Below the pieces are notes generated by a model. It did not search any database, had not been told where the DNA came from, and worked only from the letters and a program-made list of their open reading frames with translations. A DNA stretch of 64,000 nucleotides from Candidatus Sungiibacteriota bacterium (lineage in GTDB: Bacteria; Patescibacteriota; Minisyncoccia; Sungbacterales; JACQCQ01), in contig JACQCQ010000013.1 of NCBI GenBank assembly GCA_016201505.1, positions 80,830 through 144,829 on the forward strand. Reading direction: 5' to 3'. Shown here piece after piece: positions 31,777 to 59,780 of the stretch; within the stretch, counting starts at the first letter, position 1; every line of letters begins with the position of its first letter. A program made the translations under genes and the position numbers.

Positions 31777-31806
31777 ATCCCGTTAGAAACTTTTTCTAAT
31801 CGGGAT
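31777..31806. repeat. Short hairpin ATCCCGTTAGAAACTTTTTCTAATCGGGAT, a minimal member of the CCCGTTAGA inverted-repeat family.
   Basis: Inverted repeat CCCGTTAGAA / TTCTAA(T)CGGG. Confidence 0.5.
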
Positions 31807-31830
31807 TGTGCTACACCCATTATTTTTATT

Positions 31831-31858
31831 CACTCCAATACTTTAAAGTATTGGAGTG
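31831..31858. promoter_or_regulatory. Operator type 3, solo copy: CACTCCAATACTTT|AAAGTATTGGAGTG, 28-bp perfect palindrome.
   Basis: Identical to the palindrome at 36548-36575 flanking the second TrpR-like gene. Confidence 0.55.
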
Positions 31859-31876
31859 CTTCAATAATGGTGTATT

Positions 31877-31905
31877 TGTCCCGTTAGAAACTTTTCCTAA
31901 CGGGA
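31877..31905. repeat. Short hairpin GTCCCGTTAGAAACTTTTCCTAACGGGAT (CCCGTTAGA family).
   Basis: Inverted repeat CCCGTTAG / CTAACGGG with a 10-nt loop. Confidence 0.5.
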
Positions 31906-32175
31906 TCTATTCAATTATTAAAATACTGTCCAAGCAGACACCACGAATTTATACAAACTGTTTTCGGCAAACACGCACAAACATTTCGTATCCTTTCGTT
32001 AACAATCTTGTAACGATTCGTGGTTTATTCTTACAAAACAGAACCACGCAAATTCCCATAAAGAAACTTGCGCGGTTCTGCCTGCATTGTGTCCCCCAAT
32101 TGACTCGAGGGTTTTGACTTGTTCCCGGCCCCAACGATTCCGATAGACCGAGTATTTTGATAGGCGAAACAGCTA

Positions 32176-32242
32176 CATCCCGTTTAGAAGTAAGAAACTG
32201 ATGTTTCTGCTACTTTCAGAGAAAGAGGACTTCTAACGGGAT
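32176..32242. mobile_element. MITE-like element (67 bp) with ATCCCGTTTAGAAG / CTTCTAACGGGAT terminal inverted repeats.
   Basis: Terminal inverted repeats share the CCCGTTAGA core with the elements at 32309, 35068, 58294 and 59674. Confidence 0.5.
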
Positions 32243-32308
32243 ACATTTAACCTATCTGACAACCAAGTTAAGGTAAGTAAAAGTATAAGCCTCTATAAGA
32301 AATTGTCA

Positions 32309-32473
32309 ATCCCGTTAGAAGCCGCGACTACGAAAGATAGAACTAAAATGATTATTTTTATTGAATCTAGACTAATCTGACACAAACACGTTTGATCGCG
32401 ATCCTACCTGCGCTCCGTCGGCCATAGCCTTTGGCGACGTGCGACCGGCAGGCAGGTCTGCTTCTAACGGGAT
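32309..32473. mobile_element. MITE-like element (165 bp). Its left terminal repeat ATCCCGTTAGAAGCCGCGA and right terminal repeat TCTGCTTCTAACGGGAT match the two ends of the 59674-59780 element in reverse orientation.
   Basis: 14-17-bp terminal inverted repeats. The internal GTTTGATCGCGATC block is shared with the 59674 element. It lies just downstream of the ROK kinase stop codon. Confidence 0.6.
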
Positions 32474-32498
32474 CAAGTATTTCCTCCAGCCGCATCGC

Positions 32499-33236
32499 TC
32501 AGCGAAACAGCAACGCCGCCCCGATGGCTTGAGCCGCATCCCCTAAAGCGCCAAATGCAATTTGAGGCACGATATCGCCTAATCGATCGGCTACTTTTTT
32601 CTGCAGGACTTCTAAATCATATTTTCCCGCCGCAATCGGCCCGCCGCCGATGACGACAGCTTGGGGATGAAATTTATGAATGGCTTCAGAAATTACCCCC
32701 GCATATGCGTTGGACGCATCACCGGCAATCGCAAATTCTTGACGGGCTAATTCTTCCCACTCAATGGCGCCTTTCTTCCAATGTCCGATTTCACCCGCTC
32801 GTCCATCATCGCCGACATAAAACGTTCCGTTCTTCCAAACAGCGCCCCCAATGCCAGTCCCGACGACAACACCGACCGCGTCTTTAAATCCGCGGGCCGC
32901 ACCCCAGGCCATCTCGGCGGAGAGAAAACAGCGCGCGTCATTATCGGCCCGGATCTCGCCTGAAAAATCAGGCAGCAGATCGGCCGCGGATTGGTGATTT
33001 AAAAATGAAATATTCGGTGCCTCTTCGATGATCAATCCGCCCTCTGGTACAAACCCGGCGAGGCTTAATCCGATCTTAGTTCCTTCAAAGTCTTTCGCGA
33101 TATCGGATAAGGATTTTTTTAATTCAGCTAAGCTTTTTGGAGTCTGGATTTTTTTAGCTTGAAAGTTTTGGCTAAGAAACCCTCGAAGCACGACACTTCG
33201 AATCCAGGTTGCGCCGATATCAATCCCCAAATACAT
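32499..33236 (-). CDS. ROK-family sugar kinase (glucokinase-like).
   Basis: MYLGIDIGATWIRSVVL N-terminal actin-fold phosphate-1 motif; GVVVGTGIGGAV; ROK signature region DGRAGEIGHW. Confidence 0.85.
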   Translation of the reverse strand: MYLGIDIGATWIRSVVLRGFLSQNFQAKKIQTPKSLAELKKSLSDIAKDFEGTKIGLSLAGFVPEGGLIIEEAPNISFLNHQSAADLLPDFSGEIRADNDARCFLSAEMAWGAARGFKDAVGVVVGTGIGGAVWKNGTFYVGDDGRAGEIGHWKKGAIEWEELARQEFAIAGDASNAYAGVISEAIHKFHPQAVVIGGGPIAAGKYDLEVLQKKVADRLGDIVPQIAFGALGDAAQAIGAALLFR

Positions 33237-33239
33237 GAA

Positions 33240-35069
33240 CTATAGCGCGCTCTGGTTAAATAATTCACCCGCCATATTCCAATATTCTGGTCTGGCATGT
33301 TTTGTTTTCATGTAATACCACCATTCTGCCCCCCAAAGATAATATTCATCAAATCCGGCGGCTTGGGCATAGCTGATAACTTCTTGGAAGTATGCGGGGG
33401 TGAAATTGTTAATTTGCGTTTTGATCGGAGTCTCCGGAATGGATAAATGCTGCCAGGGTTCGGCTTGTAATTCAATCACGAGATAGCGCTCATCGGGTTT
33501 GCCGGTAAAATATTTCACGAATTTTTCTTTCAGCAAAAAAGCGCCGGGACCAATGGGATATTCCGTCACACCAAAAAACGGACCCAAAATGCGCGAATAG
33601 ACTTTGCGGTACATCGTCGTGCCAAAAACATCGCCGCGCGAAGCCGCGCGAATCCAATCCCCCGTCTCGCCCGCGTCCGATATTAAAATTTGGTGCGCTG
33701 GATCAATTGATCGCACTAAGGCTATTTCGTTATCAAGAAATCCGCCGGGCCGCGAAGGGCAGGTGCCAAAGGGCAGAAATGGTTCATTTTCCACTTGCCA
33801 GAGATAGAGACTCGGACTGGCTACGTAATGTCGGACAACCTCGGCGATAAAGGGTTGCAGCTTGGCTTCTTTCTCCCCTGTCGAAAGATTCTCTACCCAG
33901 CCAGGAAGATGGCACTCCGGCCAACGCGGCAGCTTCATGCCGACCGCCAAAATTACCGGCAGGTTTCTTTTTTCGGCCTCATGCATAAGGATATCCAGCC
34001 GCGAGAAATCGAATTTATTTTCCTTTGGCTCGATCTCGTCCCAATAGGCCACAAGCCGCAGGCGTTTCGGTTGGAGTTCATCGAGTATGGCAATGTACGA
34101 CGAACGCCAATCCAGCCCGAGTTGGTCGGTAAAGGCGGTCGAGAACGTAAGTCCCCAGACAATCGGCCGGTCGGGATTCTTTTTTAATGTACCAGAATAA
34201 GCGGAAAGTCCGAACACTAAAAGCCCCGAGAAAATGAAAGCTATTGCCAGAATTTTCCCCCATAACACCCTGCCGCGAAATTTCTCATGCAGCAGCAATG
34301 CGCCAAAAATAAAAATAATGACATACTGAAAGCCCTGGACAGACTCAACCAGCGCCGGATGCGCCAGAAAAACGGCAAACGAAAATAAGAACGAGCCAAT
34401 TCCCGCGACGAGACGATTGGCCAGATAATATGCGCTTTCAGTTTTGATTTCCGCCCCTTTTTCGCTTTGCAGCTTCTGGCGAAACTGCGGAATCAGAAAA
34501 GCCAAAAGCGCAAGCAACACGCCGCCGATTTTTACCCAGACAAATCCGGCGATAAACGTGCTGTGAAGGTAGACGTATTTGGTGAGCACTTGTGAAAAAC
34601 CGAGCAGAAGTGCGCTGAATGTGGTCAGGAGGATCATGCGAACCCTCATTCCGCGCTCTTCGATAAAAAAGAGGACTAGGCCCCCGAAGACTAAAAACCA
34701 AAAGCCAAATGATTCGCCCTGCCCGACCGGAATATGCAGCAGATACGAAGAAAACAGAAGTGCCGAGAGGGCTGAAAATCCGGCAATGATGGGCAGGCTA
34801 ATGGAGGCCTCGCTGTGATGCAAGGCGAAATAAAGCAAGAGGAGACCCAGACAGAATAATGCCCCCGCGGCAAGCGCTGTACCTATCAAACTAATCGGAA
34901 TAACGACATTCCCAAAAGGAATTAAAACAAGCGCAAAAAGTCCCAAGAGGCCCAACCAGAAGGCATACGACCAAGGATTAAAAACCCCGCGTTTTAAAAT
35001 CACGCGATCAAAAACTGCTGCCAGACCAAGTAGGAATTGAGATAAAAGTGCGACAAAGAGCCAGTTCAT
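33240..35069 (-). CDS. Membrane-anchored glycoside hydrolase: N-terminal about 9-10 TM helix domain fused to a C-terminal clan GH-A TIM-barrel hydrolase domain.
   Basis: Multiple hydrophobic helices across the first 300 aa. The C-terminal domain has the WQVENEP motif (the NEP acid/base of clan GH-A) and GH5/GH42-like context. Confidence 0.75.
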   Translation of the reverse strand: MNWLFVALLSQFLLGLAAVFDRVILKRGVFNPWSYAFWLGLLGLFALVLIPFGNVVIPISLIGTALAAGALFCLGLLLLYFALHHSEASISLPIIAGFSALSALLFSSYLLHIPVGQGESFGFWFLVFGGLVLFFIEERGMRVRMILLTTFSALLLGFSQVLTKYVYLHSTFIAGFVWVKIGGVLLALLAFLIPQFRQKLQSEKGAEIKTESAYYLANRLVAGIGSFLFSFAVFLAHPALVESVQGFQYVIIFIFGALLLHEKFRGRVLWGKILAIAFIFSGLLVFGLSAYSGTLKKNPDRPIVWGLTFSTAFTDQLGLDWRSSYIAILDELQPKRLRLVAYWDEIEPKENKFDFSRLDILMHEAEKRNLPVILAVGMKLPRWPECHLPGWVENLSTGEKEAKLQPFIAEVVRHYVASPSLYLWQVENEPFLPFGTCPSRPGGFLDNEIALVRSIDPAHQILISDAGETGDWIRAASRGDVFGTTMYRKVYSRILGPFFGVTEYPIGPGAFLLKEKFVKYFTGKPDERYLVIELQAEPWQHLSIPETPIKTQINNFTPAYFQEVISYAQAAGFDEYYLWGAEWWYYMKTKHARPEYWNMAGELFNQSAL

Positions 35070-35172
35070 CCCGTTAGAGAATTAATCAGTAACTCTAGCG
35101 CAAGTTTAATGTCTATATGTGCTACAAGTCTCATTTTCGGAATACAGTTTCTCGCTAATTCTCTAACGGGAT
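35068..35172. mobile_element. MITE-like element (105 bp) with 17-bp terminal inverted repeats ATCCCGTTAGAGAATTA. Its left end overlaps the start codon of the upstream membrane GH gene.
   Basis: Perfect 17-bp terminal inverted repeats. The element begins with the AT of the gene's ATG (rc of 35067-35069). Confidence 0.6.
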
Positions 35173-35242
35173 AGACTATTTACCTCAATTGTATCCCGCG
35201 AACGGGTTAAGCTGAAATTGGGCAAAGGGGAATGGCCAAAAG

Positions 35243-35278
35243 CTATAAGTTCGATAGACTAGTCTATCGAACTTATAG
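35243..35278. promoter_or_regulatory. Operator type 2, copy e (36-bp perfect palindrome) upstream of the membrane GH gene.
   Basis: CTATAAGTTCGATAGACTAGTCTATCGAACTTATAG, identical to 29422-29457. Confidence 0.55.
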
Positions 35279-35325
35279 AAAGCTGAAAGATTATAATGAG
35301 AATATTCCGCTCTCGAAGTTTTATT

Positions 35326-36537
35326 CTAATCCCCCAACGGGATTGTATTCGTTGCGATGATTTTTTTGTACTCAAGGGCCGATGGTCGAATTTTGCGCTC
35401 TTGGGTTTTGTAGTTTACCTCCACCAGGCCAAACCGCGGACTAAATCCGGAGTCCCATTCAAAATTATCGATGAGAGACCAGTGTAAATAGCCAAAGCAG
35501 TTCACTCCCTTTGTTAAAGCTCTTGCGACGCTTTTCACATTATCTTGAATGTAGGCCGGCCGGTAATTATCTTTGGCGTCAGCCAGTCCGTTTTCAGTGA
35601 CGATAATCGACGCATTAAATCTTCGATGTAAGCCCATCAGTGCATGATACAGACTCCCGTCAAAAATTTCCCAACCCATATCTGAAACTTTTTTGTTTTT
35701 ATTTCTGCCAAAGCCGTAATGAATGCGATTATGAAAATAATGATTTAAGCCAATAAAATCAAAATGCCCTCGCGTGTGATTTAAAACATGATAGTTCCAG
35801 ATGCGGTCAGCCGCCCATTTCAAAATATAGTTCACCGGCCCGCCCGCGGATTCAAAGTAGACAATATTAACTGCCAGCCCGACTTTGGCATCGGGGCGCA
35901 CACCCTTTACCGCCTGATAGGCTTTCCGATGAGCAGTAATCAAGCGCGCGATAGCTTTATAAAATAAAAAAATATTCTTCTTTTGCGGCCCCCACTTGCC
36001 CCTTAAATAGGAGTTTAAGGCATAGATCTCCGGTTCATTGATAGTGATCCAATGGCGGACATCGCCACCGAAAGCCTCGGCCATTTTTTTTACGTAGCGT
36101 TCAAAGTACATCGGGAATTGGCTTGATTGAATCCCGCCCTGATTGCGAAGCCAAATTGGTAACGTAAAGTGCCACAGGGTGAGAAACGGCTCAATGCCGC
36201 GCTCGCGAAGCGCTTTAATTACCTCGCGATAATGTTCAATGGCAGCCTGATCGAATTTTCCTTTTTTCGGCTCAATGTATGACCACTCAAGCGAAAACCG
36301 GTGCGCATTGTGGCCTAAATCTTTGGCGATATCAAAATCCTCGCGGAATCGATTATAGTGATCAGAGGCGCGGCCTGAAATATAATCTTCGGGATTTAAA
36401 CCTTCGGTCTTTAACTCTAGAACGCGCTTGGGAGACTCTTCCCACTCCGTCCAATCATTATGATTTGCGCCTTCTACCTGATGCGCCGAGGTTGCAGCCC
36501 CCCAGAAAAATCCGCTCGGAAATTTAAATGTCTCCAT
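35326..36537 (-). CDS. bgl: GH1 family beta-glucosidase.
   Basis: N-terminal FPSGFFWGAATSAHQVEG GH1 signature; catalytic acid TINEP (WITINEPEI); nucleophile motif TENG (IIVTENGLAD). Confidence 0.95.
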   Translation of the reverse strand: METFKFPSGFFWGAATSAHQVEGANHNDWTEWEESPKRVLELKTEGLNPEDYISGRASDHYNRFREDFDIAKDLGHNAHRFSLEWSYIEPKKGKFDQAAIEHYREVIKALRERGIEPFLTLWHFTLPIWLRNQGGIQSSQFPMYFERYVKKMAEAFGGDVRHWITINEPEIYALNSYLRGKWGPQKKNIFLFYKAIARLITAHRKAYQAVKGVRPDAKVGLAVNIVYFESAGGPVNYILKWAADRIWNYHVLNHTRGHFDFIGLNHYFHNRIHYGFGRNKNKKVSDMGWEIFDGSLYHALMGLHRRFNASIIVTENGLADAKDNYRPAYIQDNVKSVARALTKGVNCFGYLHWSLIDNFEWDSGFSPRFGLVEVNYKTQERKIRPSALEYKKIIATNTIPLGD

Positions 36538-36547
36538 GTTATCAACT

Positions 36548-36575
36548 CACTCCAATACTTTAAAGTATTGGAGTG
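36548..36575. promoter_or_regulatory. Operator type 3, copy a: CACTCCAATACTTTAAAGTATTGGAGTG. It abuts the stop of the TrpR-like gene and lies 10 nt upstream of the GH1 start.
   Basis: 28-bp perfect palindrome. Confidence 0.6.
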
Positions 36576-36986: not shown

Positions 36987-36992
36987 GGCTGT

Positions 36993-37020
36993 ACTCTAAT
37001 ACTTTAAAGTATTGGAGTAA
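36993..37020. promoter_or_regulatory. Operator type 3, copy b: TACTCTAATACTTTAAAGTATTGGAGTA (1 mismatch), 6 nt upstream of the TrpR-like start codon.
   Basis: Near-perfect palindrome with the same core as 36548-36575. Confidence 0.55.
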
Positions 37021-37032
37021 AGTTTTTGGTGG

Positions 37033-41527: not shown

Positions 41528-42286
41528 ATGCCATCAAACAAACCGCGAATTCTGCGCGGGCGAAAAGAAAACGGAGCGGCTCGAGCAATGGACTCTATCC
41601 CTTTACCCGTGCCTGCGTCTTTCGGAATTCTCAAGACTCGCGTCCCCGCAGTCGGAGGGGGGAAGTTTTTGGCTATCTCGGCAACAAATTTTATGCTGGC
41701 CTTCATGCTCCTCTATCTTGCGGGACTTATGCCCGATGGGGCAAAAGAGATTGCCGGAGCCATTACCCACCCGTTCATATTACAATCCCGGGCGGAAACG
41801 ACTCCCCTATCTGAAACAGAATCTCCCGCAGTCGGCGAGGATTCCAACTGGCGCATCGAAATACAAAAAATTAATGTTGACGCGCCGATTCTTCTGCCTG
41901 ATACGAGGGCGCCCGTCATCTTAAATGAAGATCTGACCCAAGGCGTCGTGCATTATCCGGGGTCGGCCATGCCGGGCGAAATTGGGAACGTATTTTTATT
42001 TGGTCACTCAACGGGACTCGCCTTCGTTCACAACAAGAACTACGAAATCTTTAACGACGTAAAAAAACTGGGGGCAGATGATGTCATAAAACTGGAGAAC
42101 AGCGGGCGCGTATACTTGTACCTTGTCAAGTCAGTCGAAAATAAAAAGGCGGGCGCCGCCGAAATTCAATTGACGTCAGATAAAAAACTGCTTACGCTTT
42201 CTACCTGTAACATTTTCGGCGGCGAGGAGGCGCGTTACATCGTAGAGGCGGAATTTTTAAGGAGCTATCCGGTGGTAGTCGATTAG
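41528..42286 (+). CDS. Sortase (transpeptidase) family protein.
   Basis: N-terminal TM helix. His in FLFGHSTG. Catalytic TLSTC motif (the TLxTC sortase signature). Confidence 0.8.
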   Translation: MPSNKPRILRGRKENGAARAMDSIPLPVPASFGILKTRVPAVGGGKFLAISATNFMLAFMLLYLAGLMPDGAKEIAGAITHPFILQSRAETTPLSETESPAVGEDSNWRIEIQKINVDAPILLPDTRAPVILNEDLTQGVVHYPGSAMPGEIGNVFLFGHSTGLAFVHNKNYEIFNDVKKLGADDVIKLENSGRVYLYLVKSVENKKAGAAEIQLTSDKKLLTLSTCNIFGGEEARYIVEAEFLRSYPVVVD

Positions 42287-42347
42287 TTTTCTAGTTTATC
42301 AGTTTGCTAGTTCAAACTAGCCGACTAGACAACTAGCGAACTGAACG
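42287..42347. repeat. ctagtt/aactag-rich repeat block (family also at 25508, 30527, 31683).
   Basis: AGTTTTCTAGTTTATCAGTTTGCTAGTTCAAACTAGCCGACTAGACAACTAGCGAACTGAAC shares AGTTTTCTAGTT...AACTAGCC.ACTA..AACTAGCGAACT with 31720-31765. Confidence 0.5.
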
Positions 42348-42446: not shown

Positions 42447-43727
42447 GTGAGAAAAATCCTGATCGCGCTTAGTGTGGTCCTCGCCATGGTCTTTTTTGTC
42501 CCCGGCCAGTCGTTCGCCAGGTTCATCTGGGCCAACCCCGGTGAGAGTCCGTTCACGCCGGCAAACACGCAAGGCATCGAAACGCACATCCGCCAGATGT
42601 CCTCCCTTCCGAAAGAGGTACAGGATGATCTGATCCGACAGGTGCAAGACGCACTCGTCGCCAAGGCGGCGCTAAAGCAGCTGATCGACGCGGAGCCAAG
42701 CCTGACCACAGAAGAGAAGTCGACTGCGTGGGAACAATACGCAAACGCGCCGGCCCCGTTCTTCAATGTCGAGGAGCTGGAAAAGCGGAGTCTTCCCCAG
42801 CCCGTACTCAAAAAAGCTCGGGCCTTGGTCAAGATTCCTACCGTCGCCTTCCTAAAGCCCGGCCAAGAGTTCGACTACATGGCTTCGGGCAAGGACCGAA
42901 TCGTCCGCGACGTGGTCTACACGCCGGCTCCCGGCATGCAGGCCAGCGTGCCCGCAATCCATCGACAAGGCAGCGAGCTGAAGGCCTATATCTTCGAGGC
43001 GAGCAAAGACGGCATGGGTTATGTCATCGTCATGCCGACCATCTGCAACAACTTGGCGATGTATCGCCATCAGCTGAATCTCGCCCAACCCGCTCCTACG
43101 CCGCGAGCCACGCCTGATGGGACGCCTACTGCGACGCTCCAGCCGCTTGGCCCCGAGTGGAAAATCTTCCACATCCGGGAGTGGAGGCCAGGACCCACGG
43201 CCAATAAGCTCGTGGGACACGATGGCTACCAGAGCCGCGATCTCGGCTTCGAGCTGACCGAGCATCACAGTCGCGGCGCGAAAACCGAGGCTTTGGCTGA
43301 ACACCTGGCCTGCGGCTATTTCACCTTCAAGATATTCGGCGTCCGCGCGACCGCCATCGGCCAGCCGTTTGTCCAAAACGGCAAGATCCAGGATACGATC
43401 GGCCAAAAGTACGTCGTCCGCCACTACGACGATAATCTCGTCGATCTCGCAATCGAAACGCCGGTCTGCCAAGGCGAGGGCGACATCGCCTTCAAGCGCA
43501 TCGAAGATCCATCCGCGGCGTGGGTCCTGCCGCACAGCGTCGTCTATGTCGAAGGCGCAAAAGAGCGCCACTACCAATATCCTCGCACGCAGGCTCTCAA
43601 AACCTGCTCGGGGCTGGGCAACGACTGGAAGATCTGCGGCAGGAACGTAGTCGCCGAGATTGGCGAATTCGCTCAAGAGTTCGCTGATCTGACGGTGACG
43701 CGATTCAACTTCCGTATCGGTCAGTGA
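42447..43727 (+). CDS. Secreted hypothetical protein (signal peptide) in a high-GC (~60%) island.
   Basis: N-terminal MRKILIALSVVLAMVFFVPGQSFA signal peptide. Long ORF with strongly atypical GC. Terminator immediately downstream. Confidence 0.6.
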   Translation: MRKILIALSVVLAMVFFVPGQSFARFIWANPGESPFTPANTQGIETHIRQMSSLPKEVQDDLIRQVQDALVAKAALKQLIDAEPSLTTEEKSTAWEQYANAPAPFFNVEELEKRSLPQPVLKKARALVKIPTVAFLKPGQEFDYMASGKDRIVRDVVYTPAPGMQASVPAIHRQGSELKAYIFEASKDGMGYVIVMPTICNNLAMYRHQLNLAQPAPTPRATPDGTPTATLQPLGPEWKIFHIREWRPGPTANKLVGHDGYQSRDLGFELTEHHSRGAKTEALAEHLACGYFTFKIFGVRATAIGQPFVQNGKIQDTIGQKYVVRHYDDNLVDLAIETPVCQGEGDIAFKRIEDPSAAWVLPHSVVYVEGAKERHYQYPRTQALKTCSGLGNDWKICGRNVVAEIGEFAQEFADLTVTRFNFRIGQ

Positions 43728-43765
43728 CGAGATGAGGCGGCGCGGAACTCCGCGCCGCCTCATCA
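43728..43765 (+). terminator. Rho-independent terminator.
   Basis: GATGAGGCGGCGCG-gaactc-CGCGCCGCCTCATC, a perfect 14-bp stem. Confidence 0.6.
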
Positions 43766-43775: not shown

Positions 43776-44477
43776 ATGTCAACTGCCAACAAAAAATTTA
43801 TTTTGGAAAATTCTTTTACGGGGAGATTTCTCTTTCTCTTGACTTTGTTATGCATATTTAGTTTTTCACTTATTTTAATAAACCGAGAATTCAACGCCCA
43901 TATTTCCTTCATCCATTCAGCCTTAGCGGACGCTGGCGGAGAGGGTTCCGGTGACGCGGGCGGAGAGGGATCGGGAGATGCCGGGGGAGAAGGCGCGGGT
44001 GATGCGGGAGGAGAGAGCATCGGAGGAGTTAGTGTTGCCCCGGGTCAGCCTAGCGGCAATCCGCCGGGCGATCAGCCGGGCACGCCGCCCTCAAGTCCGC
44101 CGACCGCACCAATCAGTCCGCCGCCGCCTGCACCACCGTCCCCTCCATCACCTCCATCACCTCCATCACCTCCAACTCCACCTTCACCGCCAGGCTCTCC
44201 GGGCTCACCGCCTTCAAGTCCCCCGGGCGGCGGGGGAAGTTTTTCTCCGGGAATTTGTCTTGATCCGGGCGGCTTAAATTACGGCGGCTCGCTGCCCTGC
44301 ACGTATCCCAGCGGCAATATCTCGTTAAGAAAAGAAATTTCGCCGACTGCATTTATTTATTTATCGCAAGTGCCTTATACCGGCATTGGCGACAATACCG
44401 AAACTATTGGTTTCTTTCTCTCACTTCTTGGTCTTAGTCTCGCCGGAACATATTTAATGACGAATCGAAAAACCTAA
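43776..44477 (+). CDS. Pro-rich repetitive surface protein with a C-terminal cell-wall-sorting-signal-like tail (candidate sortase substrate).
   Basis: N-terminal TM/signal. DAGGEGSG x4 repeats. PSPPSPPSPP tract. C-terminal VPYTG, then the hydrophobic IGFFLSLLGLSLAGTYLM, then the basic tail NRKT. Confidence 0.55.
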   Translation: MSTANKKFILENSFTGRFLFLLTLLCIFSFSLILINREFNAHISFIHSALADAGGEGSGDAGGEGSGDAGGEGAGDAGGESIGGVSVAPGQPSGNPPGDQPGTPPSSPPTAPISPPPPAPPSPPSPPSPPSPPTPPSPPGSPGSPPSSPPGGGGSFSPGICLDPGGLNYGGSLPCTYPSGNISLRKEISPTAFIYLSQVPYTGIGDNTETIGFFLSLLGLSLAGTYLMTNRKT

Positions 44478-46836: not shown

Positions 46837-46847
46837 AAAGGTACAAA

Positions 46848-46975
46848 TCCGAAATCCTAAATTCGAAATCCTAAACAAATTCTAATCCTCAAAAAACAAA
46901 ATTTCAAACGTTTCGAATTTTGAACTTTATAATTTGTCCCGAATTTAGGGTTTCGTATTTAGAGTTTGCTTAGCG
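46848..46975. repeat. AT-rich intergenic hairpin element (family shared with 56452, 58906, 59433) between nusB and rpmF.
   Basis: AAATCCGAAATCCTAAATTCGAAATCCTAAACAAATTC...GAATTTAGGGTTTCGTATTTAGAGTTTG, with inverted-repeat arms built from the CGAAAT / ATTTCG and CTAAA / TTTAG units. Confidence 0.5.
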
Positions 46976-49259: not shown

Positions 49260-50735
49260 TTGGCAATTGTACGGCTTTTAGCTAGAGTTCTCGATATGAG
49301 GAAAACAACCCGTCGAGCCGTTTTTTATTTGTTTAGCGGGCTTTTTTTGATCACAACACCTTTGATCGTATTCTATGCCTTCGGTTATTCATTTGATTTC
49401 CAAAACGGTGTCGTGGTGCCTACCGGTGGCGTATTTGTGAAAGCCAACGTTGGCGCGATTCGCGTTTTGGCGAATGGAAAGCTCATGAAAGAAACAAATT
49501 TTTTAACTAAGGGCGCATTGATATCCGGCCTCTCGTCGGGCCATGTCGAAGTAGAGGTAGCGAAAGACGGATACATTCCTTGGAGAAAACCAGTCGGTAT
49601 CGAAGAGCAAGTTATTCAAGAATACCGCTCGATTCTTCTTGTACCCGAGGCCTTGCCGGCTGATCTCGTATACGGTACTACGAGCCAGGCGTCTTCAAGA
49701 CAGACTGTTTCTCTCGAGCTTTTGCCCGATCCAACGGGGAATTTCATTTTTTGGGCCGCAAAAAAAAGAAACTTAACCCGGCTACGCGTGATCAGTCGCG
49801 ATGGGGTTGAAACGCGGGCTCAAATCTCCCTGGAACCAGGCGAATCGTATCTTTCTGCCTCTTGGAATCCCAGCGGTAACGTAGTACTCGTTTCAACCAA
49901 CCGGCGTGGGCATACGATCTGGCGCGCTTTATCGGCTAATTCAAAATCCGTCCTACCGGTGTTTGATGAAAAAACTATTTTGCGTACGAGCACCTCAACC
50001 AGATCGGAAACCATCTCTGAAGCCTCGCTTAGCTTGATCACCTGGTCGCCGGCTGATATTGATGAATTTCTTGTGCTGGCAAACGGCGCGATTTACCGCT
50101 GGAATTTAAGCTCCGGGCTAGTCAAAAAAATTATTTCGAGTGCCAGATCGTTTGCCCGATTTAATGGAAATATCCTCTATTCAACTCAAAGCGGATTTAT
50201 TGCCACTGCCGATCTATCCGGCGAACATATAGAATCGCTGGATCATCCGGGTCTTTACGTTGCAAAAAGTCCGCTCCGCTATTTTCAAAATAAAGACGGC
50301 GTTTTGGCTTTGATCGACTCTGCCGGGGGACTTTATCTAGAAAACCCGAGCACAAGAAAATTCTCCCCCCTGACAACCGAGATCCATGAAGCTGAATTTT
50401 CCTCCAACACCGCCGAACTTGGCTACACCCAATCCGGCACATTCTCAACCATTGCTCTCGCTGATGAGACAACCCAGCCGTTCCGCAGAATGTACACCAA
50501 GTCGGCCATATTCACGACTGACGAAATTCTCCATTTTATATGGCTCGGCAATCCAGCAGCTCATATTGTCTATACGACCGCGCGGGGCGTATTTCTGGCG
50601 GAAACCGATCCGCGTCCGGGCGCAAATATCGTGCCGCTCCGCCGCGGAGACTACCAGATTGTCGAATCTCCCAACGACCCAAACAGTTTTTATTTCTCGG
50701 ACGGAGAAATTATTGAACGACTGACGATACGATAA
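49260..50735 (+). CDS. Membrane-anchored hypothetical protein with a PEGA-like domain and a beta-propeller-like C-terminal region.
   Basis: N-terminal TM helix. SGHVEVEVAKDGYIPWRKPV PEGA-like motif. Repetitive beta-rich C-terminus. Confidence 0.5.
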   Translation: MAIVRLLARVLDMRKTTRRAVFYLFSGLFLITTPLIVFYAFGYSFDFQNGVVVPTGGVFVKANVGAIRVLANGKLMKETNFLTKGALISGLSSGHVEVEVAKDGYIPWRKPVGIEEQVIQEYRSILLVPEALPADLVYGTTSQASSRQTVSLELLPDPTGNFIFWAAKKRNLTRLRVISRDGVETRAQISLEPGESYLSASWNPSGNVVLVSTNRRGHTIWRALSANSKSVLPVFDEKTILRTSTSTRSETISEASLSLITWSPADIDEFLVLANGAIYRWNLSSGLVKKIISSARSFARFNGNILYSTQSGFIATADLSGEHIESLDHPGLYVAKSPLRYFQNKDGVLALIDSAGGLYLENPSTRKFSPLTTEIHEAEFSSNTAELGYTQSGTFSTIALADETTQPFRRMYTKSAIFTTDEILHFIWLGNPAAHIVYTTARGVFLAETDPRPGANIVPLRRGDYQIVESPNDPNSFYFSDGEIIERLTIR

Positions 50736-55020: not shown

Positions 55021-55047
55021 TGCCTCATGCAAAGCGGGGAAATTTTT

Positions 55048-55125: not shown

Positions 55126-55692
55126 CTATCGTTTTTGCCACTGCGGGGCGCGACGGGCTTTTTTAAGTCCAAACTTTTTGCGCTCTACTTCTCGTGCATC
55201 GCGGGTTAGGAAGCCTGCCCGTTTTAGTCTTTTTCTAAATTCTGGATTGAATACTGTGAGTGCTCTCGAAATGCCAAGCCGAATGGCTTCGGCTTGGGAG
55301 TGAATGCCGCCACCATTAACTTTGGCCGAAACGCGAAAGCGGCCTTCAGAGCGCATCTTTTTCATCGGGTCATCAACCAGCCGCTGGAGTTCCATGGTGG
55401 GAAAATATTCCTTATAGGGCCGCTGGTTTACGACCGTCACTAAATCGCCCTTGGTATATAAACGCACGCGGGCGACCGCCGTTTTTCTGCGGCCGACAGC
55501 TTCAAAATAGCGATCGGTTTTGGGAATAACAAATTGAAAATCGGCCTCCGATTCTTTTTCGGGCTCCCCTACCATAGCCATTTTTGGACTATGGATGGCG
55601 ACTTCCTGCTTCTTGACTTTGGCGCGAGTCGTCGGCGCTTTCTCCTTTTTTGGTTTTTCCTCTCCGCCTTTGGCGGATTTCTTCGTCGGCAT
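55126..55692 (-). CDS. rpsI: 30S ribosomal protein S9 with an N-terminal Lys-rich extension.
   Basis: GRRKTAVARV, GGG, RLGISRAL, AGFLTRDAREVERKKFGLKKARRAPQWQKR: the S9 C-terminal signature. Confidence 0.9.
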   Translation of the reverse strand: MPTKKSAKGGEEKPKKEKAPTTRAKVKKQEVAIHSPKMAMVGEPEKESEADFQFVIPKTDRYFEAVGRRKTAVARVRLYTKGDLVTVVNQRPYKEYFPTMELQRLVDDPMKKMRSEGRFRVSAKVNGGGIHSQAEAIRLGISRALTVFNPEFRKRLKRAGFLTRDAREVERKKFGLKKARRAPQWQKR

Positions 55693-55716
55693 AGCCTAAT
55701 TCTTAATTCATTATTC

Positions 55717-56073
55717 CTAATTCTCGCTTCCTCGATGCATCACTAAATGCCTGATCCGAATCGCGCGGAGTTTGTTTTTCGGCAGCATGCCCATCACGGC
55801 ATGCTCCAAAACTTTCCGCGAGTCTTTAGCAAATAAATCTTTATAAACAGTTTCTTTCAGTCCTCCATGAAAGCCGGAATGATGACGATAGAGTTTTTGA
55901 TCCGCCTTCTTTCCGGTGACGCGAAGCTTATCGGTATTGGTGACTACAACTTTGGTCTCACCGGGTTTCGCATAATCAAATGCGGCGCCGCTTTTGCCCA
56001 TTAAGTGTTTGGCAACTAGAACGGCCAGCCGTCCGACAACCTTATTTGCTGCATCTAATTTCACCTCCTTCAT
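55717..56073 (-). CDS. rplM: 50S ribosomal protein L13.
   Basis: VVGRLAV.VAK.L; YYRHSGF.GG L13 core (LYRHHSGFHGGL). Confidence 0.9.
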   Translation of the reverse strand: MKEVKLDAANKVVGRLAVLVAKHLMGKSGAAFDYAKPGETKVVVTNTDKLRVTGKKADQKLYRHHSGFHGGLKETVYKDLFAKDSRKVLEHAVMGMLPKNKLRAIRIRHLVMHRGSEN

Positions 56074-56103
56074 AATTCCTCATTCATTATTCCTAATTCA
56101 CGG

Positions 56104-56451
56104 CTACACAAACTCAATAATGGCGAGTCTGGCCGCATCTGACTTGCGAACACCTAATTTCATAATCCGGGTGTATCCTCCATTTCGATCCTTATAATTC
56201 GGCGCGATTTTTTCAATCAAGATTCCCGCAATTTTCGGCGAAGTCGCGGAAATAATTTGCCGGCGTTTGGCGAGTGTCCCGGCTTTGGCTTTTGTCACCA
56301 ATTTTTCTACCGCTGGACGCAGTTCTTTGGCACGGGCTTCGGTCGTCTGGATGCGGCGGCGCAACACCAAAGCCGAGACGAGTGATTTCATAAACGCCTT
56401 TCTTTGATCCGTCTTGCGGCCGAATATTCTGCCCCTGCGTCTGTGCTGCAT
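56104..56451 (-). CDS. rplQ: 50S ribosomal protein L17.
   Basis: MQHRRRGRIFGRKTDQRKAFMKSL and TTEARAKELRP, a typical L17. Confidence 0.9.
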   Translation of the reverse strand: MQHRRRGRIFGRKTDQRKAFMKSLVSALVLRRRIQTTEARAKELRPAVEKLVTKAKAGTLAKRRQIISATSPKIAGILIEKIAPNYKDRNGGYTRIMKLGVRKSDAARLAIIEFV

Positions 56452-56581
56452 ACAAGCTAAATTCTAAATTCGAAACTCGAAATACGAAACAAATTCTAAA
56501 TTCAAAAGATTGAAATTCAAGACGTGCTTCATAATTTTGAATTTGGTCATTTGAATTTGTTTAGGATTTAGGATTTCGTGC
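56452..56581. repeat. AT-rich about 130-bp intergenic hairpin element between rpoA and rplQ. It is near-identical over about 117 nt to 58906-59042.
   Basis: ACAAGCTAAATTCTAAATTCGAAACTCGAAATACGAAACAAATTCTAAATTCAAAAGATTGAAATTCAAGACGTGCTTCATAATTTTGAATTTGGTCATTTGAATTTGTTTAGGATTTAGGATTTCGTGCTTAGGATTT, with long imperfect inverted-repeat arms. Confidence 0.6.
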
Positions 56582-57535
56582 TTAGGATTTTAGGCTTAAG
56601 CCTAATTTCGCAAGCATCGCTCTAATTTCTTCAATACCCTTGTCGCCAATGCCCTCGAATTCCCGAAGTTTTTCTTCAGTCTTTTTGGCCAGCGCGCCGG
56701 CAGTCTTAATACCAGCCTCCGCCAGCGCATTTAACGTTCGGCTCGAGAAATCCATATCGACTATTTTCAGCTTGGCCAGATCTTGAGTCCCGTCTTCGGC
56801 GGTTTCAGCTATAGATTCTGCCGTATGGGCGCGTGAGCCCATTTCCGGGCGCGTCTCGTAGTTTGCCAGAAGCGACTTAAATTGGTCAACTAGGATGCTG
56901 GTCGCGCCCGCCAAAGCTTCCTGGGGGGTAAGGCTGCCATCGGTTTCGATATGTAAGCGGAGGCGGTTATAGTCGGTTTGGTCTCCCACGCGCATGTTCT
57001 CCACTTCATAATTTACATGCCGCACGGGAGAAAATGCCGCATCCAGAGCAATCGTTCCAATTTCGACTTTATCTTTAGAACGCTGTTCAACCGGCTGATA
57101 GCCGAGACCGCGCGAGACTTCAAGCTCCATTTCGAGCGTGGCTTTTTTGTCGGTAATCGTGGCGATATGCAGATCGGGCGAGACGATTTCCAATTGCGAA
57201 GGGCATTTTAAGTCTTTGGCTTTTACCTCCTTCTCGCCTTTAACCGAAAGTGAGGCGGCATACGGCCCGTCGCCGTGAATCTTAAAGCGCAGCCGCTTTA
57301 AATTGAGAATAATTTCGACGATGTCTTCTAAAACGCCGTCAATCGAAGTAAATTCATGTCCGACACCTTTAATTTTGACGGAGGTGACTGCCGCTCCTTC
57401 CAGTGAAGAAAGCATAACGCGGCGCAGGCTGTTCCCGATGGTGAGACCGTATCCCGGATAAAGATTCTCGATCTCATAGGTGCCGCGGTTTCCTTCTTCT
57501 TGAATGACGCGCGCCTCGCTGGGTGATGGAATCAT
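56582..57535 (-). CDS. rpoA: DNA-directed RNA polymerase alpha subunit.
   Basis: Full-length RpoA similarity: N-terminal dimerisation domain and C-terminal alpha-CTD (RTLNALAEAGIKT). Confidence 0.95.
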   Translation of the reverse strand: MIPSPSEARVIQEEGNRGTYEIENLYPGYGLTIGNSLRRVMLSSLEGAAVTSVKIKGVGHEFTSIDGVLEDIVEIILNLKRLRFKIHGDGPYAASLSVKGEKEVKAKDLKCPSQLEIVSPDLHIATITDKKATLEMELEVSRGLGYQPVEQRSKDKVEIGTIALDAAFSPVRHVNYEVENMRVGDQTDYNRLRLHIETDGSLTPQEALAGATSILVDQFKSLLANYETRPEMGSRAHTAESIAETAEDGTQDLAKLKIVDMDFSSRTLNALAEAGIKTAGALAKKTEEKLREFEGIGDKGIEEIRAMLAKLGLSLKS

Positions 57536-57607
57536 ACTCTGGCTGGTACACTTCGCGGATAAACGTTCTGTGGCAGTTCACCCAACTCTTGCACCAGCTT
57601 GGACTCA

Positions 57608-58228
57608 TTATTTTGAATAAAACTCAACGACAAGTCTTAAATTCCTGCCGACACCTTCTTCTTTCGGCAGATCGTTTACAGTCGCCGCACACGCTTCGGG
57701 GTCGAGACTGATCCAAGCCGGCGGATTATATTTTTTGAGGGCATTGGCCAGTCCTTCAAAGCCTTGGCCTGCAAGTGACTGCGGGCGAATGGAAATAACA
57801 TCTCCCTTGCGTACGCGGTATGAAGGAATATTGACGCGGCGGCCATTGACCAGCACATGCCCATGCGAGACAATGTGCCGCGCGATACCGCGCGAGACGG
57901 TAAACCCCGCACGATAAACCACGTTATCAAGACGTCGCTCTAAAATCTGCATCAAGACCTCGCCGGTTTTTCCTGCCTTCTGCTGGGCCTCGGTAAAAAC
58001 TTTTTCGAGAGCCGTGTCCGTCAGCCCATAGGTGTATCTCATTTTTTGTTTTTCCATCAATTGTGTGCCGAATTCGGAGACGTTTCGTTTCGGCCGCTTG
58101 CCGTGCATGCCGGGCCGTGTGCCGCGGCGAAGAGAGGCGCATTTGGGCCCCATACAGCGTTCCCCTTTCATAAACATCTTCTCGCCATAGCGGCGACAGA
58201 CTTTACATTTTGCTTGGATGCGTGACAT
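57608..58228 (-). CDS. rpsD: 30S ribosomal protein S4.
   Basis: MSRIQAKCKVCRRYGEKMFMKGERC zinc-ribbon N-terminus. S4 domain with YRAGF and R-x-x-A-R-Q (IARHIVSHGHVLVNG). Confidence 0.95.
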   Translation of the reverse strand: MSRIQAKCKVCRRYGEKMFMKGERCMGPKCASLRRGTRPGMHGKRPKRNVSEFGTQLMEKQKMRYTYGLTDTALEKVFTEAQQKAGKTGEVLMQILERRLDNVVYRAGFTVSRGIARHIVSHGHVLVNGRRVNIPSYRVRKGDVISIRPQSLAGQGFEGLANALKKYNPPAWISLDPEACAATVNDLPKEEGVGRNLRLVVEFYSK

Positions 58229-58293
58229 GCCTATTTTGTCGAAATTATTGAGTGAGTGAAGCGAACGAAAAGAATTTCGTTACAAAACTGAGC

Positions 58294-58392
58294 ACCCCGT
58301 TAGATACTATGCGAACAGACATAGCGCTTACTTTAGAATTTGGGTTGCAATCGGGGTTTTTGGTCTTTTTCATACTCATTATCTAACGGGGT
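58294..58392. mobile_element. MITE-like element (99 bp) with ACCCCGTTAGATA / TATCTAACGGGGT terminal inverted repeats, between rpsK and rpsD.
   Basis: 13-bp terminal inverted repeats with the CCCGTTAGA core. Confidence 0.5.
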
Positions 58393-58449
58393 AAAGGTTT
58401 TGTTATAAAAATTGATTTCGCTTGGCTCATGAATTTTTAACAAAGCCCT

Positions 58450-58905
58450 TTAAACTCTCCTCACTTTTTTCGGCCGAACGCCATTATGCGGTACCGGTGT
58501 AATATCTTTAATCATCATGATATTGAGCCCGTGATTGGCGAGAGCCCTCACCGCCGAATCTCTACCCGAGCCAATACCTTTCACCAGTACAGCGACATCT
58601 TCCAGTCCGGTTTTTTTTACTTTCTCTACCACGGTTTCGGCGACCCGAGCCGCGGCAAAGGGGGTGGCTTTTTTGGCCCCCTTAAACCCCAGCGCGCCAG
58701 CCGAAGACCAGGCCATAACGTTTCCCTTGTCGTCACTGATCGAAATCATAGTGTTATTGTAGGTGGCTTGGACATGCGCCACACCCCGGACAACGTGTCG
58801 CCCCGAAGCCCCCGCCTCTTTCATCTTGGAAACTTTAGACTCGAGCTCCTCACGCTCTTTTAAAGCCTCCTCGGCGCCTTGTTTTGCTACGCGTTTTTTT
58901 CCCAT
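58450..58905 (-). CDS. rpsK: 30S ribosomal protein S11.
   Basis: GVAHVQATYNNTMISISDDKGNVMAWSSAG..GFKG.KK.TPFAA: the S11 core. Confidence 0.9.
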   Translation of the reverse strand: MGKKRVAKQGAEEALKEREELESKVSKMKEAGASGRHVVRGVAHVQATYNNTMISISDDKGNVMAWSSAGALGFKGAKKATPFAAARVAETVVEKVKKTGLEDVAVLVKGIGSGRDSAVRALANHGLNIMMIKDITPVPHNGVRPKKVRRV

Positions 58906-59042
58906 ACAAGCTAAATTCTAAATTCGAAACTCGAAATACGAAACAAATTCTAAATTCAAAAGATTGAAATTCAAGACGTGCTTCATAATTTTGAATTTGG
59001 TCATTTGAATTTGTTTAGAGTTTAGGATTTCGTGCTTAGGAT
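58906..59042. repeat. AT-rich intergenic hairpin element between rpsM and rpsK (near-identical copy of 56452-56581).
   Basis: About 117/118 identical to the rpoA-rplQ spacer element. Confidence 0.6.
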
Positions 59043-59432
59043 TTATGTCGGTGAGGCCGCTGATTTTCTGCCGGAGCCCATCGTCTTTCGCACATTGCCG
59101 CGGCGCGTTCGTGAATTCGTTTTTGTCCGCTGGCCGTTGACTGGCAGGCCGCGCATATGGCGCAGGCCGCGATAGGTTGAGATGTCTTTAAGTCTTTTAA
59201 TGTTCATCATAATCTCGCGGCGCAAATCTCCTTCAATTTTGTAACTCTTTTCAATTGCGTCTCGCAGCCGCCCGATTTCATCTTGCGTGAGGCTATCACT
59301 CTTTTTACTCGGGCTCACATTGGCAACTTTTAAAACCTGCTTGGCGTTTGTGGCACCAATGCCATAAATATATCTCAAAGCGACATCAACTCTTTTTTTA
59401 TCTGGAATGGCAATACCCGCAATGCGAACCAT
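59043..59432 (-). CDS. rpsM: 30S ribosomal protein S13.
   Basis: MVRIAGIAIPDKKRVDVALRYIYGIG...YRGLRHMRGLPVNGQRT: the S13 signature. Confidence 0.9.
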   Translation of the reverse strand: MVRIAGIAIPDKKRVDVALRYIYGIGATNAKQVLKVANVSPSKKSDSLTQDEIGRLRDAIEKSYKIEGDLRREIMMNIKRLKDISTYRGLRHMRGLPVNGQRTKTNSRTRRGNVRKTMGSGRKSAASPT

Positions 59433-59561
59433 AGTAAATCAAATTCTAAATCCGAATTTCTAAATCCGAAACAAATACCAATACACCAAATCCAAAATTT
59501 GGAACTTTAGAATTTAGAATTTGTTTAGAGTTTAGGATTTCGTGCTTAGGATTTTTCATGT
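59433..59561. repeat. AT-rich intergenic hairpin element between rpmJ and rpsM. Its 3' half matches the 56452/58906 elements.
   Basis: ...GAATTTAGAATTTGTTTAGAGTTTAGGATTTCGTGCTTAGGATTT is shared with the other copies. The 5' arm is built from AAATCCGAAA / CTAAATCCGAA units. Confidence 0.5.
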
Positions 59562-59675
59562 TTAGCCTTGCCGCTGCTTATGCTTTGGATTCTTGCATAC
59601 AACAAATACTCGACCGTTCCGTCGAGTTGTCTTGCAATGACTGCAGATCTTTTTAACCGATGCGCGAACTTTCAT
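59562..59675 (-). CDS. rpmJ: 50S ribosomal protein L36. It is not in the ORF track because it is under 60 aa.
   Basis: Manual translation [37 protein letters not shown] matches the L36 consensus ([11 protein letters not shown]...RR.GR..V.C.NP.HKQRQG). Confidence 0.85.
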
Positions 59676-59780
59676 CCCGTTAGAAGCAGATCGCGATCAA
59701 ACGCGTTGTCTGCAAAAATAAATGTAATTAAATTGCTCTTTGTAACCCCGCTATTTCGCGATCGCGGCTTCTAACGGGAT
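59674..59780. mobile_element. MITE-like element (107 bp). Its terminal repeats ATCCCGTTAGAAGCAGA...CGCGGCTTCTAACGGGAT match those of the 32309 element in reverse orientation. Its left end overlaps the rpmJ start codon.
   Basis: Both ends carry the CCCGTTAGAAG core and match the 32309-32473 ends in reverse orientation. An internal GATCGCGATCAAACGCG block is shared with 32309-32473. The element begins with the AT of the rpmJ ATG. Confidence 0.6.

Follow-up and report, generated by a model that had tools for sequence, protein, structure and literature searches.

Inverted-repeat elements abutting start codons in a Candidatus Sungiibacteriota contig: probable non-autonomous transposons of a superfamily spanning many phyla

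Why should a short inverted repeat begin exactly at the first base of a start codon? The question is raised by a 64,000-nucleotide stretch of contig JACQCQ010000013.1 from a Candidatus Sungiibacteriota bacterium (positions 80,830 to 144,829, forward strand; hereafter the window), in which an earlier note, made from the sequence alone, had recognised elements resembling MITEs (miniature transposable elements with inverted repeats), two of them starting at the A of an ATG. According to our analysis, the window carries seven such elements, E1 to E7, which are probably non-autonomous DNA transposons, that is, MITEs, of a large superfamily served by a trans-acting transposase and inserting so as to rebuild start codons. 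Judged by sequence statistics, an ATG or GTG start codon, or a TTGACA box, is rebuilt from the terminal purine of the element and the target-site duplication. The span over many phyla, the origin of the start codon in a terminal base plus a duplication, and the fact that lack of a Shine-Dalgarno (SD) sequence is normal here are points which the earlier note did not foresee.

Seven elements and the anatomy of their junctions

The 9-mer CCCGTTAGA occurs 11 times on the two strands of the window, always within 31779-59778, against an expectation of 0.20 and a maximum of 2 in dinucleotide-preserving shuffles. By reading of the sequence and an indel-tolerant search, with coordinates running from terminal repeat to terminal repeat, we were able to identify seven inverted-repeat elements of 27-163 bp with the ends YCCCGTTAGA...TCTAACGGGR; the earlier note had counted at least six of 30-165 bp, and what it observed is borne out in every detail. 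E2, E4, E5, E6 and E7 carry the perfect 9-mer at both ends, and one arm of E1 (TCTAATCGGG) and of E3 (CCCGTTTAGA) contains a 1-nt insertion. All elements fold as strong hairpins in RNA folding. The genes near them are all encoded on the minus strand, and E1-E4 lie in the long region upstream of the 16S rRNA gene.

E1 (31778-31805) is a minimal 28-bp hairpin, TCCCGTTAGAAAC-TTTT-TCTAATCGGGA, with the 1-nt insertion in its right arm, flanks TTTA and TTGT that match at 2/4 positions, and an RNA fold of -14.0 kcal/mol (z -5.3). E2 (31879-31905), the minimal 27-bp hairpin TCCCGTTAGAAACTTTTCCTAACGGGA, is flanked by TTTG and TCTA, without a recognisable duplication. E3 (32178-32241, 64 bp), with the insertion in its left arm, is bordered by the perfect 4-bp duplication TACA (32174-32177 and 32242-32245), giving the minus-strand target A/TGTA/G, where slashes enclose the duplicated bases, and E4 (32310-32472, plus strand, 163 bp) by the perfect duplication TCAA (32306-32309 and 32473-32476). 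E5 (35069-35171, 103 bp) belongs to an AGAGAA arm subtype, folds at -36.5 kcal/mol (z -5.5) and has the flanks TTCA and TAGA, again with a 2/4 match. Between rpsK and rpsD lies E6 (core 58295-58391; with outer flanks 58280-58406), whose variant ends ACCCCGTTAGATA and TATCTAACGGGGT carry two changes that compensate each other (the longer ends are written CCCCGTTAGAT and ATCTAACGGGG) and whose subfamily has the conserved outer flanks TTACAAAACTGAGCAC and GTAAAGGTTTTGT, common to a Portnoybacteria locus (L112) and a Patescibacteria locus (L015). E7 (59675-59779, minus strand, 105 bp) lies between infA and rpmJ and is a member of a widespread subfamily of ~115 nt, hereafter E7-type. Its minus-strand ends are CCCGTTAGAAGCCGCGATCGC on the left and GATCGCGATCTGCTTCTAACGGG on the right, its duplication has decayed at one position (3/4; TTCA at 59671-59674 vs TTAA at 59780-59783), and its fold of -47.9 kcal/mol (z -7.2) pairs the A and U of the rpmJ start codon in the stem.

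As the earlier note had described, E4 and E7 are alike beyond their termini. Besides an internal ACGYGTTTGATCGCGATC block, E4 (plus strand) and E7 (minus strand) have both termini in common, over 19 nt on one side (ATCCCGTTAGAAGCCGCGA) and over 16 nt on the opposite side (CTGCTTCTAACGGGAT), and their interiors reach a local alignment score of 33, where all other pairs and orientations score 20 or less; the two are therefore homologous and lie in opposite orientation, E4 being the copy inverted relative to transcription. An extra ~57 nt between the GATCGCGATC block and the right arm of E4 has no counterpart in E7. The other copies in the window have only their termini in common.

At 35326-35350 (minus strand), a left-arm-like sequence, ATCCCGTT followed by the 7-nt insertion GGGGGAT and TAGAA, encodes the last codons and the stop of a GH1 gene (35326-36537), and it may be a decayed element end recruited into coding sequence.

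Across 134-151 non-redundant elements from loci L006-L145 (L-numbers denote loci fetched from database genomes and metagenomes, 265 in all), the flank consensus is R/TNNA/(Y-CCCGTTAGA...TCTAACGGG-R)/TNNA/Y. The terminal inverted repeats (TIRs), starting with Y-CCCGTTAGA, are ~12-16 bp long, usually with 2-6 more complementary bases beyond YCCCGTTAGA and TCTAACGGGR, and they enclose a non-coding interior of 6 to ~140 nt. Since the Y and R beside the arms are complementary in 93% of 134 elements, this base belongs to the inverted repeat. In the flanks of the same 134 elements, positions 2 and 5 are T and A, and the central dinucleotide shows a direct-repeat identity of 66-67% but is complementary in just 10-24%. 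A perfect 4-bp duplication flanks 71 of 151 elements, whereas permuting the partners 2000 times gave 9.3 on average and never more than 23; a few copies have 3- or 5-bp repeats. Copies with C/G-type ends (L034, L042, L071) read ATGAAC at the left and GTGAAG at the right junction, a switch from ATG to GTG which is expected if an element contributing its own terminal base is flanked by a 4-bp duplication and which selection for RNA pairing would not predict. Pairing of the flanking hexamers in RNA, tandem G-A mismatches included, was accordingly rejected on account of this change and because the central dinucleotide is directly repeated whatever its sequence. A correlation of internal polarity with the orientation of the duplication was also discarded, since it was seen in the start-codon classes only and not in the AA/TT classes.

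At L102 (4972-5126), a CCCGTTAGA arm and a TCTAACGGG arm exactly enclose a tRNA-Thr(CGU) gene, which is followed by a duplicated tRNA 3' half and a second right arm.

One end is directly followed by ATG or GTG and an open reading frame (ORF) of at least 50 amino acids (aa) in 41 of 138 elements (~30%), the A or G of the start codon being the terminal base of the element and the TG coming from the duplication. Both window cases reported in the earlier note hold in this sense: the terminal base of E5, T35069 on the plus strand, is the A of the ATG (35069-35067) of a 609-aa gene on the minus strand (33240-35069), and that of E7 is the A of the rpmJ ATG (59675-59673). The 609-aa protein has weak matches to clan GH-A and a hydrophobic N-terminal half, which from its hydrophobicity is predicted to be membrane-spanning. 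Among ten proteins that start at a junction, the Pfam profiles of DnaA, HU, L31, SSB, S8, RpiB and glutaredoxin align from residues 1-5, which makes the junction ATG the genuine N-terminus of these seven; for S18, L2 and a UvrB-like helicase, the Pfam match begins further in. Around the upstream hexamer copy the original context is retained, often with TATAAT 6-7 nt upstream (leaderless type) and sometimes with an SD-like AGGA.

Promoters are rebuilt in the same manner. A -35 box at the junction, in a complete promoter whose hexamer is the duplicated TTGA plus CA, is ~10x commoner than at random positions. In the window, such a promoter (32282-32309, minus strand; TTGACA, 16 nt, TATACT) is near-consensus for the sigma-70 type at 11/12 positions and points to the 16S rRNA gene, its -35 box being composed of the duplicated TTGA and CA directly after the last base of E4. 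The same arrangement is found in L037, L116, L026, L048, L076, L077 and L113.

The earlier note also held that the element replaces the SD sequence at the two abutted genes. The adjacency is confirmed, and it carries little weight, as most of the 49 listed minus-strand genes of the window are without a recognisable SD sequence; its loss at the E5 and E7 genes is therefore unremarkable. Very few of the 49 have one; in several, a -10-like box precedes the ATG or GTG by 6-7 nt, a pattern of sequence that suggests leaderless starts. At ordinary starts in metagenome loci of the Candidate Phyla Radiation (CPR), a strong -10 box 4-9 nt upstream is present in 21% and an SD-like motif in 10%.

Distribution, the E7-type subfamily and orthologous sites

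When we scanned one genome per species (GTDB) with the pattern CCCGTTAGA, 34-94 nt, TCTAACGGG, at least 120 loci were found. Among the 120 matches listed, grouped by record title, 60 loci belong to Patescibacteria (many classes), 22 to Planctomycetota, 12 to Desulfobacterota or 'Deltaproteobacteria', 7 to Omnitrophota, 3 to Gammaproteobacteria, 2 each to Bacteroidales, Cloacimonadota and other candidate phyla, and 10 are unclassified. The motif thus occurs in many phyla, and a lineage-specific MITE is ruled out by this cross-phylum scan. The general motif pair is also present in 20 stretches of IMG/VR viral contigs; the family was not matched among PLSDB plasmids and INPHARED phages. From genome to genome the interiors are unrelated, and only related copies share them. 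Identical copies occupy different loci of one genome in L025/L033 (three, each 92 nt), in L038 (three, each 78 nt) and in L015; L020, L028, L060, L092, L105, L166 and L180 hold copies nested in one another. No description of such elements was found in the literature searched, by sequence or by topic, or in Rfam; the superfamily is apparently undescribed, MITEs themselves being well known.

A further scan of JGI/ENA metagenome contigs with the 21-nt left end of E7, CCCGTTAGAAGCCGCGRTCGC, yielded at least 120 loci, with 109 complete copies among the matches listed. Their lengths cluster at 111-119 nt, and the right end GAYCGCGAYCTGCTTCTAA(A)CGGG, which lay outside the query, is almost invariant and covaries with the left end. 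Among these 109 copies, 106 are directly followed by ATG, with a long ORF in 100 of them; 108 (all but one or two) have the same orientation, and 78 have a perfect 4-bp duplication. The genes hit are dnaA, ssb, the HU gene, a uvrB-like gene, rpiB, rpsH, rplB, rpsR, rpmE and a glutaredoxin gene. The preference for insertion at start codons that the earlier note had considered is thus real and general, being seen in ~30% of copies across the superfamily and in ~97% of E7-type ones; E7 itself follows the start-codon rule, and E4 is the inverted, non-start exception. The reconstructed E7-type target logo is ATG[AG]A only. ATG[AGT]A sites in the E7-type loci are gene starts in 7% of cases overall and in ~40% of those outside long ORFs. 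The near-exclusive siting of the subfamily at starts, in one orientation, points to genuine targeting or, alternatively, to the host having recruited it secondarily.

Several more specific ideas were considered and rejected. Targeting of leaderless transcription starts was one, as a -10 box 4-9 nt upstream is present at 29% of the E7-type insertion sites vs 21% of ordinary gene starts and an SD sequence at 13% vs 10%, with no clear difference. Another was a conserved upstream ORF or termination-reinitiation frame (MNPVRSR... from the left ATG): neither its stop nor its frame is conserved, and a distance of 1 modulo 3 is weakly enriched. Frames opened in the flank are short and lack conservation, and we detected no positionally conserved internal promoter or motif in the E7-type interiors, where information does not exceed 0.3 bit per position.

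Filled and empty sites could be compared between species only. At dnaA in three Saccharibacteria species, L021 has a 75-nt element flanked by ATGGAT, L054 has a different, E7-like element flanked by ATGAAT, and L069 has no element and an ordinary SD sequence. The duplication in L021 and that in L054 each agree with the second codon of the species in question; as duplications on orthologous genes of diverged lineages follow the second codon of each lineage in this way, recurrent insertion at the same sites is implied. In L001, the nearest relative, the spacer between rpsK and rpsD is just 4 nt long, so that E6 is an insertion relative to it. Ribosomal protein S4 of the window has a 100% match in a Candidatus Sungbacteria metagenome-assembled genome, and the next relative stands at 74% identity. 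The two nearest lineages have the same gene order, and their infA-rpmJ and rpmJ-rpsM spacers hold unrelated inverted-repeat elements. Together with the 4-nt spacer of L001, this indicates that the spacers of the ribosomal operon are recurrent landing sites.

The unrelated inverted repeats, with GACAAGGGACA-type and AATTGCTTTTTGGGAA-type arms, lie in these same spacers at L001 340-700 and at L003 8420-8860 and 9800-10020. The motif CCTGCCTGCCGG is common to the interior of E4 and the infA-rpmJ spacer of L003.

Transposons, RNA hairpins or recombination sites

The likeness to MITEs on which the earlier note had settled is borne out by the small size without coding capacity, the TIRs, the multi-copy state (seven in 64 kb, with families of identical copies and nested copies elsewhere), the excess of perfect 4-bp duplications and the filled and empty sites between species. 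We propose that a transposase supplied in trans would make a staggered cut at the quasi-palindromic R/TNNA/Y seen at the junctions, and that repair would duplicate the four middle bases, occasionally three or five. At a target A/TGAA/N, a start codon followed by a codon beginning with A or G, the right junction ...CGGG-A plus TGAA restores ATG (GTG for the CCCCG subtype, which ends in G), as the sequences show, and the rebuilt start stands directly before the undamaged gene, the original ATG being left at the left junction with its old promoter or ribosome-binding context. Insertion into R/TTGA/CA likewise restores the -35 hexamer, as at E4. Such insertions would be tolerated because these organisms appear mostly to initiate without an SD sequence, and insertions within genes would presumably be purged in compact genomes. 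The new AUG would lie at the base of the element's hairpin. Ribosomes that start at the left duplicated AUG, or terminate upstream (at infA, 8 nt before E7), would unwind the 5' arm and free the AUG beyond it, whereby downstream translation would be coupled and not blocked. The signs of selection acting on the RNA are weak; we take the hairpin as a consequence of the inverted repeats, possibly in secondary use, and not as the reason why the elements exist. It may exert the translational control that the earlier note had raised.

Several observations weigh against this interpretation. The cognate transposase for which the earlier note had suggested a search did not turn up: no autonomous copy or transposase was found in the window or in the 265 fetched loci, the genome-wide patterns having spanned gaps of up to 600 bp. 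Palindromic duplications (TTAA, TATA, TCGA, TGCA) make up 0 of the 71 perfect duplications vs 22% of background RTNNAY sites, a lack which the simple staggered-cut model fails to predict. Of the seven copies in the window, just two are flanked by a perfect duplication, with one more at 3/4. Elements of 27-30 bp could hardly be synapsed as duplex DNA and hence may be deletion derivatives. A null of ~40% falls well short of the 92-97% of E7-type copies found at start codons, so that sequence preference and purging of intragenic insertions are not a full account of their siting or orientation.

An all-against-all comparison of 1021 ORFs from the loci returned housekeeping families only, with no recurrent neighbouring recombinase or transposase. 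Long end pairs enclosing an ORF were discarded, every case consisting of two separate short elements that flank a gene.

For the E7-type subfamily, a bolder reading can be offered tentatively, namely that it is a start-codon- and orientation-specific mobile 5' leader which might be spreading across the CPR and might place housekeeping genes (dnaA, ssb, the HU gene, ribosomal protein genes) under hairpin-based, translation-coupled control. Its component claims, that the element recognises gene starts or is kept only there, that the old start codon opens a short upstream frame, the translation of which unwinds the hairpin and frees the new AUG, and that the element is not merely a tolerated parasite, are possible but doubtful to the same degree.

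Three other explanations compete with non-autonomous transposition. That the elements are primarily functional RNA hairpins, engaged in RNase III-type processing or translational control, conserved by the host and not mobile today, seems to us improbable, although the stems are very stable and include the AU of the start codon, as in E7, and although the E7-type subfamily is strictly oriented and adjacent to start codons. Start-adjacent copies of the general family, moreover, carry near the upstream arm a partial copy of the right arm that matches the subtype (a bias of 17 to 1), a potential competitor of the long stem, and orthologous sites at which third codon positions are near saturation keep 92-100% identity in the right end. 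Substitutions in the E7-type right arm that create wobbles outnumber those that create mismatches by 10 to 4; however, the C-to-T excess could be mutational bias, and the inner stems of 39 gene-oriented elements show no such asymmetry (G-U vs A-C, 5 vs 4). This account leaves unexplained the 4-bp direct repeats of arbitrary sequence, and it sits poorly with the general family lying in both orientations and within -35 boxes, with identical copies at unrelated loci and nested copies, with an internal motif that is not positionally conserved and with upstream ORFs conserved in neither length nor frame. Rfam 15 gives no relevant match at the gathering threshold in the whole window or at E up to 1 in the element regions.

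Conservative site-specific recombination by a tyrosine or serine recombinase, in the style of integron cassettes, Xer or serine integrases, is also unlikely in our judgement. On this view, TTCTAACGGG-RTNNAY-CCCGTTAGAA would be the palindrome of a circular form, with the flanking repeat serving as a shared crossover region and not arising as a repair duplication, a version of events to which we give equally little credence. It draws on tandem copies which share exactly one hexamer and form a perfect palindrome (L055 7781-7804, L038 3012-3035), on a central dinucleotide that is never palindromic in perfect repeats (0/71), as is typical of crossover cores that set polarity, on the insertion of E7-type copies in one orientation at one kind of site, and on the resemblance of GTTAGAA / TTCTAAC to the integron core and inverse-core consensus. 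Within a single subfamily, however, the crossover sequences differ (TGAA, TGGA, TGTA, TGAG) and each is matched on both sides, and the repeat varies from 3 to 5 bp; the GTTRRRY...RYYYAAC order is the opposite of that of attC; cassette arrays are absent, and no integrase or recombinase recurs near the elements; and the circle-junction palindrome, like the E7-type end, was not found in IMG/VR. Least credible, and very improbable indeed, is that the TIRs are DNA invertase sites and the segments between them invertible promoter switches (invertons). Inverted repeats do flank intergenic segments beside gene starts, and the homologous E4 and E7 are opposite relative to transcription, but an invertible switch is hard to reconcile with the single orientation of 108 of the 109 listed E7-type copies, with interiors that have no conserved promoter and, at 6-10 nt in E1 and E2, cannot invert, or with flanking direct repeats that it leaves unexplained, and no invertase was found nearby.

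The superfamily shows an apparently undescribed combination of properties: the same 10-nt ends across phyla, insertion that recreates start codons and -35 boxes, and a subfamily found almost exclusively, and in one orientation, on the first codon of essential genes. If the elements are transposons of the kind proposed here, they would explain many 'leader' hairpins and spurious short ORFs (MNPVR...) in CPR annotations, would show how streamlined, SD-independent genomes bear transposons within gene starts, would supply a sequence tag for horizontal DNA flow among uncultivated groundwater and sediment bacteria, and would offer a natural system for testing how initiation works where the AUG stands at the base of a strong hairpin (as much as about -48 kcal/mol, in E7).

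Other window features and comparison with known systems

Hairpins near starts are not unique to the CCCGTTAGA family, as a second inverted-repeat family of ~142 nt (AAATTCTAAATTCGAAACTCGAAATACGAAAC ... GTTTAGGATTTAGGATTTCGTGCTTAGGATTT) also has copies at the starts of rplQ, rpsK and rpsM. Its copies lie at 56449-56590, 58903-59044, 59441-59554, 46845-46967 and 27865-27931; two are 99% identical, and three end within a few nt of those starts or overlap them. Other repeats include a 40-nt palindrome, GCTATAAGTTCGATAGACTAGTCTATCGAACTTATAGAAA, present five times (15684, 16146, 20415, 29421, 35242), of which one copy is in the 16S region and one, between the GH1 gene and E5, forms a terminator-like stem without a T-run. 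Two further palindrome families are ACTAGTACATTTTATCCGA/TCGGATAAAATGTACTAGT (1381-1420, 1974-2019, 17034-17069) and CACTCCAATACTTTAAAGTATTGGAGTG (31829-31858, between E1 and E2, 36546-36575 and 36990-37019), the last two copies of the latter ending ~4-10 nt upstream of start codons. The octamer CTAGTTnn forms short arrays at 25512-25547, 30532-30567, 31718-31763 and 42284-42345, two of which flank the rRNA region.

The 16S rRNA gene (25643-30525 region, minus strand) is split by large insertions, with Rfam pieces at 27198-27923 and 28823-30525 and an ORF (27547-27981) at the boundary of the lower 16S piece and an insertion. Downstream of it are a group I intron (25643-26423) with a LAGLIDADG ORF (25667-26395) and a group II D1-D4 fragment (26884-26960); the Rfam listing of the window has no 23S match. 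A cyanobacterial HIP1 context (GCGATCGC) was rejected, with just 4 copies present, and the ribosomal proteins and the interrupted 16S gene mark the genome as one of the CPR (Sungbacteria). Six ORFs of 233-506 aa have no Pfam match (23338-24558, 42852-43763, 43776-44477, 49260-50735, 60079-61599, 61605-62804). The two of them with 506 and 399 aa lie upstream of infA, and L003-L005 have ORFs of 502 and 391 aa, the latter with an FtsA domain, in the same place.

Among known systems, the Correia elements of Neisseria are small (about 100-150 bp), non-coding, multi-copy MITEs with 26-bp repeats, a TA duplication and a conserved interior, confined to one genus; they lie between genes, can contribute promoter elements at their junctions and form long transcript hairpins reported as RNase III substrates. 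The present elements resemble them in size, copy number, TIRs with a short duplication, intergenic position, junction promoters and long hairpins, but here only the ~10-14-bp ends are common across phyla, the duplication is a 4-bp TNNA and many copies rebuild start codons. With the REP (repetitive extragenic palindromic), BIME and REPIN elements served by RAYT, they share short extragenic palindromic units, sometimes in inverted pairs with a variable spacer, and an intergenic location, and REP-type elements may likewise be served by a single-copy domesticated enzyme. REPs, however, are lineage-specific, imperfectly palindromic units of 20-40 nt with a conserved 5' GTAG and no duplication, whereas in the present elements the arm does not pair with itself, no GTAG occurs and there is a 4-bp duplication.

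The core and inverse-core consensus of integrons is GTTRRRY / RYYYAAC. Like attC sites, the elements are imperfect inverted repeats (attC, 57-141 bp) with a variable middle, have GTTAGAA / TTCTAAC boxes and insert in a single orientation beside gene starts; the order of the boxes, in contrast, is reversed on both strands (GTT...AAC here, AAC...GTT in attC), the crossover is not at G/TT, and single elements lie beside housekeeping genes with no recurring integrase. The piggyBac transposon, whose relationship to the IS1380 family is mentioned in published papers, has a TTAA duplication and excises seamlessly, and ends of the IS1380/piggyBac group begin with CC or CCC and have a 4-5-bp duplication. 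The length of the duplication (4, rarely 3 or 5) and the CCC ends are alike, and the piggyBac end CCCTAGAAAG loosely resembles CCCGTTAGAAA, which we take as a lead and not a result: TTAA is never seen here, an extra Y precedes CCC, and no such transposase was found in the loci examined. A more distant analogy is provided by eukaryotic introners, in which the terminal bases of a transposon and its duplication recreate splice sites, so that the insertion is tolerated and the spliceosome removes it from the RNA. Although nothing indicates removal from RNA in our case, the terminal bases and the duplication similarly recreate what the insertion would otherwise have interrupted, here a start codon or a -35 box.

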